A stretch of 64,000 bases of DNA from Paecilomyces variotii (Eukaryota), in the NCBI GenBank assembly GCA_004022145.1, contig RCNU01000008.1; one strand, written 5' to 3'. Both the position numbers and the translations under genes were made by a program. Shown in pieces: positions 20,423 through 25,602 of the stretch (the first letter of the stretch is position 1; each line of letters starts with the position of its first letter). Below the pieces are notes generated by a model. That model was not told the DNA's origin, made no database searches, and saw only the letters and a list, made by a program, of their open reading frames with translations.

Positions 20423-21330
20423 TTAATCAGGAGGACCAGGCTGCAATCCCCACCGTCGCCAAATGCGTTCGGCAACATCGATATAGTGTGGTCGTCCCGA
20501 CCATTTGAAGTCCACCATATAGCTTCGAAAGATGTCAGCAGACATTTCCACATACTATATATACTCTCAGCTTACCATTTCTCATTCTCAGCATCCCATA
20601 TGAGAGTCGGATTGCCACCCTTACTCACAACTCCACATCGTTTGGTATCCCTGTGTGCAAGTTGATTAGTACAGAGATAGAAATATCACTTGCTTTTACC
20701 CGAAAACTGGTACTTACTCTAGTGCTTCTTTGAAAGCTTTAAAAATCCTTTTCCTTTCAGCCTGAGGCATGGTTTGATAGTCGTAATCCCCTTCACCAAG
20801 TGGGACTCCAGGACACCAGGTCATAAGAAGATAAGAGATGAATCCAGTGGGCACAATTCCATCATCTCCTTGTTTTGTATGCAATTCTGCAACCAAGTGC
20901 GGAGCATGCTTGGCTGTATTTTGTGTGAGTTTACGCAAAGCCTTAATCTCAGATGCCATATCCTCAGACCGGTTGATATCAGCTTGTGCTTTTCTGGCAG
21001 CAGCGCTCGTAAACTCAGCATCGATCCAAGGGATTCTAGGTCAATCAGATTCAATAGATTAGAAAGCAAAGACTTCGATAAAAATTGGGGATATTATGTA
21101 GTAGCCTACTCCATGTAAATTTTTATAGCGTGTTTAACTCCTAGACCATCTTTCTGCTTGCATGAGAATACCGCCCGTGCGACAGAGCGCAAATTATGAG
21201 CAATACTCTCTTCCCTGGTGATCTGGATTGAGTTCTCACTAATTTTTTGGTCGAGCACCCAAATGACATTTGGATCATTAGGGAAAATGATCTCTTTTCC
21301 TTGCCAAATGTCCGGTCCGAAGAACTTCAT
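20423..21330 (-). CDS. Small protein-kinase-fold protein (atypical or pseudokinase), 4 exons, 237 aa
   Basis: Exons 21330-21110, 21035-20718, 20650-20576, 20522-20423 total 714 nt in frame with no internal stop. Motifs AVFSC, AIKIYME (beta3 Lys), EIKAL, YLLMTWCPG (hinge), LIWD, YMVDF; the catalytic-loop position reads VVSKGGN. Confidence 0.72.
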
Positions 21331-21585
21331 CTTCGTATTTAGAAGCTTTTGAGGTCGAGAATAGCTTTCAAATGCTGCTACGGATTTTCTCATTCAGTCC
21401 CAGTCCTATAGAGGAGAAGAAAAAGGCTCTATCACTGATTAAGCTCAGCCTTCGGGCAAGAATTGCTTTCTTTCTAAGGTTGCACTTTATGTACGTAATT
21501 CCATAACTTAGCACGTCCCATGGGAGGTCATGTGCCGCCGGACCTTAATAAATATCATCGTCATCGTCATTAATATCATATCAAA

Positions 21586-22640
21586 ATGGCCGAGTCTCTC
21601 TTACTCCTACAGAAGCCCAATCGCTGGACAGCCAGGCATCTCGAAGTCGCTAGAGTGAGGGTAATTCAAGATGTATCTGCAGCTGAACTTCTCGGGGACT
21701 TCTACCCAGAAGATGGAGATCCTGGTGAGAGACATGCATAATAGAGCCCCCTATATTCCAATACAACATCATTCTAATCCTTAGAATTGCCCCAGCAGAA
21801 TTTGAAAACATCGCAGAACAACTATGTGGCCCGAGTCGAGAAGAGATGGAGAGAAGCGTCGAGACGATGCATCTCACGTACGACAAGACGGCCTTGATCG
21901 CATTGTTCGAAGATCTTTACATGATTCTGAAAGTGGATGTGAAACAGTATCGTTATTGGTTTAAGCACTGGCTGTGTAAACTGGTCGAGGGAATTCAGTT
22001 TCGAACATCTTCACTGACCGGTCTATTTGTGTATGTCTAGCCATCCAACACTAAATCATTAATGGGTCGGTTCTAACTACAGTAAAAAGGAATACCTCCA
22101 GACGCACAACTGATATCAGGGTTGACATACCACGATTATCGCGCGCTCATATGAAGGTGGATTGCACTGTTTTAAAATTCAACAAGGAAGAAGATTCTCT
22201 CACTATTCCTCTTGCAGTTCTTTCTGTAAGTGTCAATATATCCTATCTTGAACTGTTCATTACAAAAGCTCTGACTACTCAAGATTATCAAAACGAAATG
22301 TGAAGAGAGCGTTGAGATCTCTCGGTATGAAGTCCCGCAGTGTTTAGCGCAAACCATTATGGCCTACTCTCGCAACCCCGGACTGGAACAGTACTACGGA
22401 TTTGTTATTAACCTTGATCGAACTGTTTTGCAAATCAGCAAGGCTGTTGTGGGTCAAGCATACCTAAAGAGCTTCTGGGAAGATGGATCTATCACCGAGG
22501 ATATACAACTACATCGTGCAAAGAAATTAGACCTTCTTGATCGTGATGGACGCAGGGAGTTCTCAAGGCTTATAATAGGAATATCTAAGTTCATTTTGGC
22601 AAATGAACAGTCGAAGATTATCCAGGAAGGACTGCACTGA
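21586..22640 (+). CDS. Hypothetical protein with putative PD-(D/E)xK nuclease-like fold, 4 exons, 286 aa
   Basis: Exons 21586-21724, 21799-22020, 22083-22225, 22284-22640 total 861 nt in frame; intron 2 needs a weak GTCTAT donor. Pattern KVD..PLAVLSIIK..PQCLAQTIMA..GFVI..YL..LDLLDRDGRREF. Gene model is reasonably supported; the fold is an inference. Confidence 0.62.
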
Positions 22641-23036
22641 AAGGAGAGATGCAAGCTTTAGGGGAAGTTCCCACGTAACGACCATGTGTAGGCAGACCCG
22701 CTGCCATCATAAAGTGGATGTGTTACCTTAAGGTCCATAGGGAAACTTCGAAAGACCACTAGTTTCTCTGTGGGGTGTATGAAAGGGCTCGAGATGTAAG
22801 TATGAGAGGTAGGTGGCGCTAAGACAGCAGCTAACCAACCTCACCTCAGTGCCGTGGATCGTAAGGCACCAGGCTTCCTGATCTTGCCAGTTCTGAATGA
22901 GACATCACCTGATCCAGCATCTCCGATTTCCTGCGCAAGTACAGCTTTCTTCCTTCCCACTGTTGTGCTTGATACCGCCAGAATGTCGCCGTTTGGCCTG
23001 GAACGATAAATCAGAACCGACTACATCGACGGACAG

Positions 23037-24426
23037 TCAATTCAACAACTTGCCTCGAACGAAATGTTGGGATACCTGCCAAGCCTGCCCGATCCTGTGT
23101 GTGAACCCTCGCTGCCGATGACCAGACCACCATCCAACCTTTCCTTGTATCGTTTTCCCCAGTGAAGCACTTTCCGCCGAGATAGGCATCTCGGGGAACC
23201 AGTTTAGATGCCTATCTGCATCTTGGTCGTCAGGACGGTTTAGGCGATCCGTATTGGCCGAATCCTTGGCCTTAGCATCATCTCTGGTGGCTAGCCAAAT
23301 CTTGAGTTTGGTATCCGTAGGTATACTTCGATAGTTAGCAATATGATACTCAGGAACCGAGTCCAACTATGCCCACTTAGATAGAAAGAGTCATGAAGAA
23401 CCCCCAATTCCTGCGTGAGTACAGTACTAGCGAGTTCCTGTAGACAGTTTTTTGAGGCAGTTTCCTCTTTGTTTTCATCTGAAGAAGCGCAGATGTCGCT
23501 TTCTGGGCTCGGGTTTTCGATGTTAACGCGCACCTTCTTGCTCGTGACGCATTGTTTGATCTTGGCGGGAAACTGGAAGTTCTCCAGGTCCTTCGCAGAA
23601 GTACGTGGCATCCGCCACGACGGGTCAAACCAGTATAAGACGTGCAATAGGAGTTGCTTCACCTGGGGGCCGTACTTTTTGCACTCTTGATGAAACTGTG
23701 CAACGCTAGGGAGTGCAAGCTGATTCGCTGTACCGCGCGAGGCCAGACGTTCAAAGACTTCGCAGTACGCGTCGTCGGAGAGGAGGATTAGGAATCCGGG
23801 GCGTCGATAGTTAGGTATAATCCAACCCGGCGTAGTTATGGGCTTCGCCAATTTGGGCCACTGGACCTCGTCGTTGTCGCCATTTGAATCAAACTGGTCC
23901 GCATTGATCCCATACCAATTTCCCTTTTGCTAGTTATATCACAGGCAACAATAGCTTCGGAGCATTCTAAGCTCCTATCGTACGCGTCGGCATACGCTTG
24001 TTCAAGGTGGACAACCGATATTACTGGGTGAATATCCCAGTCGTCCGGGAGATCCAATTCGTATGTCAACCGTCCAACACGCCGTTTGATGTTAAACGGG
24101 CCCTTCATCACTGGTGAGAGTTTCGAGGATTGCAGTATCGTATAACCCGTAGATCCGGGGCGTCTGGTGAGGCGGACGTATACCTGGTCGTGTAGCAATG
24201 GAGGTTCATGATTATCATCGAATACTGCGGCCATCTTAGCCTGAACAAGGTCCATCGCATCCAATACTGCTGCACGTAGCTGCTCCCGTGTAGTAACAAA
24301 GTCATTGTCCGACGTGATCCCCGTTGGCAAAACGCGTGGTCGAACCCCATACAGCAGTTCAGTCGATAGTGGGAAAAGATGATTTTGTCGCCGTAACGGA
24401 GTCCGGGGCCTTAGCGAATTCGGCAA
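23037..24426 (-). mobile_element. Degenerate Ty3/gypsy (chromovirus-like) retrotransposon relic: integrase C-terminus plus chromodomain remnant, followed by frameshifted ORFs
   Basis: ORF 23836-24426 contains ELLYG, DQVYV and KLSPVMKGPFNIKRRVGRLTYELDLPDDWDIHPVISVVHLEQ (GPF/Y module). EAIV and a frameshifted W-Y-G follow. No RT, RNase H or LTRs were seen. Confidence 0.8.
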
Positions 24427-24513
24427 GACGACGGTTTCCCTTGCTTTTTGTACCTACGGAACTGTCGCTTCAACGTGCTGAGAGTGCTTGGAAGCCGTTT
24501 AATCGGACTGATA

Positions 24514-25602
24514 TCAGTGATGGTCTGTAGAATTTCGAGAAGGGAAGCATATTGAGATCGAGATATTCCAGTCTCTTCGCACCACAGGGCTAAAGAAATG
24601 AGAAAGGTTTAAAACGTTCTTCGAACGATATTGGTGGACTTCCTCCGAGATGTCTTCAGGTATCGGCGCAGCAGAATAGGGGTATTCCTCTAGCGTCCAT
24701 GACTTGAAAAGTTTGTAAAGCTGCTTCACGTACCGAATCAAAGGATCAAAGTTAACGGGATGTATATATTTAGGTTAACCTGCTGAGTTCATAGAGATAG
24801 GAATATTATTCTCCCGAAGCTCATCCTCAGAAGATGTTAGGATCTGTGCTTTCAGGGGTGTATATACTTATGGATAAGTCAGTCTTAAGGCATTTTCCAT
24901 TTCTGTGTAATGAACTCACCAGCGTCGTTGTCATCACCGATATAACCCCATCTAAGCGATGGGGCCATTCGCCAGTATAGCCATATTATCTTCCCACTTC
25001 TTCCTTGCAGCAGTTTCCATGTCTTTGAACAAGCGTTTGGTACGAGGTTATGAGTATAGAACGAAGATTTCTCTCTGAACGTTCAAACATTGGGTCATCA
25101 CGTCGTAGAAGGGGAAGGACGACTGCAGTGCCAAGGGCTTCTCTCGGGCGTCTTCGAAATACATATAGACTTTAAAGATGTCTATAGCACGATCCATCTC
25201 GTTGGCCCATTGCCAAACGAGATGGGGAAGAACAATAACGAGTTCAGGCTTGATATATGGTCTTGGAAACTCGCACTCAAGCATGCTCATTCGGGAAAAA
25301 TCGACTCAGTGAGAGGTTATCAATGTTGGTTACGCGGAGAGCACGCAAATGCTCTTGCTCTTGCTCCCAGTTGGAGGCCGAACAATGACGGTCCTTTCTT
25401 ATAAGGCTGCCTTTCTTCTTTGGTAACCTCTTTTCTTGGTCTCTCGCAGTTTCGTCCTCAACCCGCAGCGTGCTGTCACTGTGGCATTCTCGTGTCCGGT
25501 CGTATGTACTCAAGGAGCTGCTCTTTGGATGATGGCCGGATATGGCGGGAAAAGTCAACAGTGTCGGGGACGCTCTCACCTTGAAGAGAGATATAGAGAC
25601 AT
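24514..25602 (-). pseudogene. Decayed intron-containing gene, possibly related to the 21586 gene family
   Basis: Broken ORFs 25277-25708, 25048-25290, 24514-24741 with in-frame stops; canonical-looking intron GTGAGT..CTGAC..TAAG at 24919-24867; segment SASNWEQEQEHLRALRV. Confidence 0.45.

Follow-up and report, generated by a model that had tools for sequence, protein, structure and literature searches.

Linked PD-(D/E)xK-fold paralogues in Paecilomyces variotii, one lacking the catalytic motif and one broken, suggest an undescribed fungal nuclease and decoy

The window analysed here, a 64,000-nucleotide stretch of the Paecilomyces variotii genome, contains three neighbouring genes, designated A, B, and C, together with remnants of repeats and mobile elements (Table 1). 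Genes A and B are divergently transcribed, while gene C occupies 22.7-25.5 kb on the minus strand, directly downstream of B and convergent with it. A preliminary description of this DNA had drawn attention to A and B as two four-exon genes with open spliced frames, divergent and 255 bp apart. Both genes are real and match annotated proteins; the length of 237 aa given for A is correct, and the 286 aa given for B becomes 287 aa. The decayed pseudogene beside them, which had been taken as background, is actually gene C, the paralogous partner of B.

Table 1. Position of genes, gene parts, and repeats at the A, B, and C locus of P. variotii (window coordinates).
Feature	Position	Strand	Description
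Gene A	20423..21330	-	4 exons, 237 aa; protein-kinase-like fold, probable pseudokinase
Spacer repeat	21437..21575	+	Decayed, 5'-truncated copy of a ~190-bp dispersed repeat; short trinucleotide ((TAC)n-like) tail
Gene B	21586..22640	+	4 exons, 287 aa; PD-(D/E)xK (restriction-endonuclease) fold without (D/E)xK, probable pseudonuclease
Gene C last exon	22739..22997	-	Opens with A-K of E-x-K; then several frame changes, pieces in three frames
Gene C GC-AG intron	22998..23053	-	Separates E from A-K; same codon boundary as the third intron of B
Gene C middle exons	23054..23761	-	Catalytic strands D-G-G and I-S-F-E; D-G-G at 23140
122-bp stretch inside gene C	23128-23249		89% copy on contig C6
Tf2-like retroelement fragment (SH3 domain)	23839..24453	-	PF24626, E 4.6e-12; between C exons 1 and 2
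Gene C first exon	25283..25474	-	W...H-L-R-A-L-R-V motif common with B; frame runs into a stop

Gene A is spliced from minus-strand exons 21330-21110, 21035-20718, 20650-20576, and 20522-20423 into a single open frame, and gene B from plus-strand exons 21586-21724, 21799-22030, 22090-22225, and 22284-22640; the products are identical to the annotated P. variotii proteins P0141 and P0148, respectively. Transcripts are present for both. All six introns of the two genes were spliced in RNA run X3 and subsets of them in X5, X6, and X10, as read from contig joints, and an alternative acceptor 3 nt upstream is also used in gene B (X6). This evidence comprises contigs from 4 of 24 listed public runs, with the RNA labels of X3 and X5 being guesses. 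The two genes fall on separate RNA contigs of opposite strands; that of gene A starts at 21439, at the edge of the spacer repeat. Annotations of each gene occur on about 25 P. variotii contigs, against 23 for an unlinked paralogue, and judged by these annotation counts A and B look near-fixed in the species, which does not fit the accessory status implied when the locus was called an accessory island. Full-length strain alleles of gene B are 91-99.7% identical, and RIP indices revealed no mark of heavy mutation on gene A or B. Three strain models deviate, namely P0142 (A short of ~29 residues), P0144 (A with K70N), and P0150 (B stopping at 181 aa); these are either real alleles or annotation errors.

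The predicted model of gene B (pLDDT 87.7) best matched the mitoribosomal proteins mL65 (Z 14.5) and mL37 (Z 13.9), followed by the nucleases DrdV (Z 8.9) and BpuSI (Z 8.1). Nucleases of the restriction-endonuclease-like fold make up most of the 50 matches listed, Foldseek concurs, and the match covers residues 8-278. The PD-(D/E)xK fold proposed for B from motif patterns is thus confirmed, although its activity is another matter: the (D/E)xK motif on the third core strand is missing from gene B and from all 37 family rows anchored at P164 (108 aligned). Gene B has D148, an Asp ahead of the motif position that 12 of 30 family rows share. Barring a relocated active site, gene B is probably catalytically dead. 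Its family comprises 107 representatives at E up to 0.001 and displays invariant, non-catalytic residues W14, P41, and Y229. None of 108 family members matches a nuclease family in Pfam, where genes A and B themselves have no significant family, and Pfam and PDB sequence searches with A, B, and C gave nothing useful. With the last exon of B as the query, P. variotii proteins alone were returned (3 of 118 candidates, an annotation-dependent result).

The two best structural matches of gene B (PDB: 3j7y_5 and 7a5f_s3), with ~215 residues aligned, are themselves paralogous, repurposed endonuclease folds; PMC8998825 describes mL37/mL65 as a mitoribosomal pseudo-dimer of repurposed endonucleases. 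Identity to these proteins is 6-8%. B differs from them in its multiple copies, its patchy occurrence, and its linkage to a paralogue that has the motif intact, and nothing found here points to the mitoribosome.

A comparison with hhalign shows homology between genes B and C (probability 95%, E 3.5e-8), and from this homology to B we infer that C belongs to the PD-(D/E)xK superfamily and would share its fold. An intron common to both sets them in register, B reading LAVLS|IIK against NISFE|AK and LVSLE|AK in C, with S-I-I replacing E-A-K. The catalytic D and E-x-K are present in the window copy of gene C, in the copy on contig C4, and in the Aspergillus wentii protein P0132, which matches the last exon region of C. 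The first exon matches the contig C4 paralogue (tblastn E 8.5e-5). Splicing of the GC-AG intron was detected in RNA run X5 (joint 22995/23052, 4 bases slack), and the last exon is overlapped antisense by the 3' untranslated region of gene B, whose RNA contig reaches 23164. Insertions and frameshifts have ruined the window copy of gene C and left B as an expressed orphan: the Tf2-like fragment and other sequence split exons 1 and 2, the 122-bp stretch is inserted, and the last exon is frameshifted.

Comparison of the B loci disclosed that C-type sequence lies within ~3 kb of all four B genes found in this genome. A search with A. wentii P0132 gave three places in this genome, each adjoining a B gene, and a search with the first exon of gene C likewise gave three, its own included, each again beside a B gene. 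The arrangement differs between loci, being convergent here and on contig C2 (C tail only), tandem on contig C56 (only exons 1 and 2 of C), and rearranged on contig C4. The contig C2 fragment was also tested as a possible inverted duplicate of the exon of its own B gene, and this origin was rejected. In A. wentii, P0132 carries the locus tag next to that of the B-type protein P0030 and reads D-G-G and F-E-S-K, while the fused gene model P0126 consists of B followed by a C tail. Metagenome scans with the alignment of A (23 pattern matches) and with B (85) gave no confirmed relatives, and neither did a viral-contig scan with A (38 pattern matches), so the order of genes in other genomes is read from locus tags and fused models. 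Support for the B-C linkage is good within this genome and thin beyond it, where the A. wentii pair and P0126 are the two examples; the C-family search covered this genome, and solo C genes elsewhere could be common.

In a tree of the last-exon region, five C rows and one distant relative fell on one side of a branch with 95/96 support and six B rows on the other, which indicates that B and C are old sister lineages travelling together and not local duplicates. The tree included 39 rows, with the wrongly cut P0054, P0062, P0106, and P0127 kept in, and the five C rows alone had weak support (87/31).

The decay of these loci is uneven. Gene C is broken while B is open at three of the four loci (the contig C2 gene being judged by its annotation, P0134), and it is broken or apparently without a start at all four. 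On contig C4, the C frame is open with D...E-x-K, whereas B is disrupted: exon 1 is frameshifted and lies directly ahead of C, and exons 2-4 are inverted ~1.3 kb away, on the upstream side. This copy of C appears to have no start of its own. The B-C locus there (L015, G000:C4:820.5-824.2 kb) was apparently split by a single inversion, and a single inversion of a head-to-head pair would presumably break both genes together. A fifth, distant C-like gene (L053:1000-2000, G000:C78:939-940 kb) is frameshifted and without the Lys, and no B was found within ~8 kb on either side of it. A further copy of the dispersed repeat lies ~3 kb from this gene.

Taken from sequence and predicted structure, the B-C pair suggests an undescribed fungal nuclease with a decoy, possibly a toxin with its antidote. 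We tentatively favor the reading of B and C as a nuclease toxin with a dead-paralogue antidote, to which we give a little under an even chance. The pair would be an old two-gene one, C being a motif-intact PD-(D/E)xK nuclease-like protein and B its full-length paralogue with the motif erased. In the absence of B, C would cleave the nucleic acid of cells or spores, and B would neutralize C, either as a dead pseudo-dimer partner that binds it or by occupying its target. Three elements of this scheme are inferred: the nuclease activity of C, its toxicity, and the binding or blocking of C by B. The tight linkage looked for in a toxin and its antidote was found at all four loci here, in the A. wentii pair, and in P0126. 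The loss of C with B open at three of the four loci is the asymmetry expected when the toxin goes first, and the pseudo-dimer formed by mL65/mL37, the closest solved folds to B, also counts in favor. Against it stand the open C beside a disrupted B on contig C4 and the C-like gene on contig C78 with no B neighbor. That B is intact and expressed despite several independent lesions in C argues further against a pure antidote, unless B guards against other copies.

The same persistence of B, long after the decay of C, would be natural if the two genes were linked by descent or by an ordinary partnership in the cell. An ancient tandem duplication would then have yielded an active and a dead copy, copied as a block, with no toxicity involved and B kept for a job of its own, for example nucleic-acid or protein binding like mL37/mL65. 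The large B family with its invariant non-catalytic residues agrees with such a history, as does the repurposed, structural nature of the endonuclease folds that B most resembles. It accounts less readily for an adjacency that distant paralogues retain in at least three orientations, and an obligate two-subunit machine does not predict that C rather than B is lost at three of four loci. On balance, we consider this explanation possible but somewhat unlikely.

A wider form of the toxin and antidote reading would place B-C among undescribed selfish or conflict elements of fungi spread across Eurotiomycetes, in which a dead paralogue serves as the decoy subunit. The four P. variotii loci would be disarmed drive relics, with the toxin broken in each and B kept as immunity against incoming copies. 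We hold this broader proposal as speculative, and rather more doubtful than not.

Turning to gene A, its predicted model (pLDDT 74.7) adopts the bilobed kinase fold that had been proposed for it, with GAK as the best structural match (Z 13.1, rmsd 3.1, 186 aligned), 426 Foldseek matches at E up to 0.001, and the fold match covering residues 2-237. Residues K70, E103, and D209 are retained, and both the Asp and the Asn of the catalytic loop are gone; one strain allele also carries K70N. Although A scores 0.98-0.99 against Ascomycota APH/Kdo-like kinase clusters (ESM Atlas), its subfamily differs from them in the loss of the catalytic loop. The canonical loop is seen in 1 of the 10 family rows that include it, and H-x-D-x4-N is kept by two of nine paralogues in this genome, as read from printed sequence contexts. 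The family occupies 10 places in this genome, its own counted. Codon comparison of gene A with its closest paralogue (dN 0.26, dS 1.32, 234 codons) indicates that A is under purifying selection relative to that gene. Homologues in Talaromyces are 72-87% identical. Over aligned residues, A shares 85-87% identity with two Talaromyces proteins and 65% with its closest paralogue here, and given these closer relatives outside its own genome, horizontal transfer of A is possible. Gene A is best read as a selected pseudokinase, separate from B-C and lying upstream of it across a repeat remnant.

These data bear on the earlier proposal that B is a nuclease toxin and A its kinase antidote, expressed from a shared promoter. 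The folds match, both genes are expressed, and in most strains they are adjacent by locus tag (locus tags give gene order and not orientation). The proposal is largely refuted by motif loss, however, because (D/E)xK occurs in none of the 37 anchored B rows, A has no catalytic-loop Asp or Asn, and one A allele loses K70 as well. The two families are also unlinked at all 12 other loci in this genome, as seen in ten-kb stretches around three B paralogues and nine A paralogues, and a C profile listed no C-type sequence at the nine A-family paralogues. Close homologues of A occur in Talaromyces, whereas the search with the last exon of B returned P. variotii proteins only, and one strain shows the tag order B, another gene, A, reversed relative to the flanking genes. 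We regard this model as very improbable. What survives of the conflict module first envisaged is the plausibility of a conflict-type nuclease module at the locus, without the A-B pairing or a Spok-like mechanism.

The spacer between the start codons of A and B (255 bp, 21331-21585) also argues against a shared promoter, being largely dispersed repeat. A repeat copy, with boundaries taken from the alignment, covers ~140 bp, roughly half, of the 255-bp spacer, and the start codon of gene B is located ~10 bp beyond its tail. Across the genome, 17 copies of the repeat were located, this one counted, with identities of 72-100% (for example, L028:4915-5105), and none of the other copies has A or B genes alongside. 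The repeat is thus not a dedicated promoter of the A and B families. We take it to resemble the 3' end of a LINE or SINE.

The pairing of B with a kinase-type gene finds partial support, since a divergent, head-to-head kinase-type neighbor is present at three of the four B genes: A here, an APH gene on contig C2, and a PIP5K-family gene on contig C56. The catalytic motifs of the APH gene are intact. This distribution could reflect a three-part module of an active nuclease C, a dead paralogue B, and an interchangeable head-to-head kinase-type gene that regulates or detoxifies, a split counterpart of Spok or of the Crinkler REase-kinase combination, and the purifying selection on gene A would be in agreement with it. 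The three neighbors nevertheless come from unrelated families (best E of A against the APH gene, 0.012), APH matches are common in the genome (57), none of the nine A-family paralogues has B-family sequence within ~5 kb, A itself is devoid of catalytic residues, and the locus was chosen for its kinase neighbor. Together these points leave the three-part arrangement quite unlikely. The B paralogues at L016:6109-7335 and L017:6300-7672 stand head-to-head with a third PIP5K-family gene and with the APH gene; two larger PIP5K genes exist.

The locus resembles the Podospora Spok genes, as described in PMC6660238, in having a presumed killer of PD-(D/E)xK type, in being multi-copy and scattered, and in the kinase-fold gene nearby. 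According to the same source, Spok3 needs K240 for killing and D667 for resistance. Spok is a single polypeptide, in contrast to the separate, opposite-strand nuclease and kinase genes found here, and its resistance acts through the kinase, whereas the candidate antidote here is a dead nuclease paralogue. The killing Lys has no equivalent in gene B, and gene C, which does carry the motif, is broken at this locus; for the resistance Asp, the loop of gene A offers neither Asp nor Asn. Judged by these residues, A and B cannot act as the two halves of Spok, unless their active sites are rearranged.

Crinkler (CR) effectors, as described in the review PMC5289972, likewise bring together REase-fold and kinase-fold domains near mobile DNA. 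Their ubiquitin-like N-terminal header was seen in neither A nor B, where the fold matches leave no room for it. Instead of an REase-kinase/NTPase fusion, the genes here stand alone, and the fused models seen are B-B or B-C; unlike the Crinkler REase, gene B is catalytically degenerate. The B-C-A locus is neither a Spok nor a Crinkler, being set apart by the features tested, architecture and motifs; it might operate as a split nuclease toxin-antidote.

We found no spore killer or toxin-antidote pair of the B-C kind for Eurotiales among the open-access papers searched. If the toxin and antidote reading is true, a nuclease restrained by its own dead copy would be a new toxin-antidote design, unlike the kinase-based resistance of Spok, and it would give a role to a large, unannotated fungal protein family that has no Pfam match. 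An apparently intact, natural B-C pair is annotated in A. wentii, making this reading directly testable, and P. variotii can be crossed, according to PMC6300479. The A. wentii annotation of C apparently leaves out exon 1.

A short frame between the exons of gene C (24414-24608) looks like the beginning of a fungal DNA transposase; it had no significant Pfam match. Neither the 122-bp insert nor the spacer repeat matched Rfam, the single sub-threshold match being at E 0.48. The contig C6 copy of the 122-bp stretch (L033:4963-5084) is positioned near a long A/T run, and a contig ending at this stretch reached a depth of ~600 in RNA run X3.
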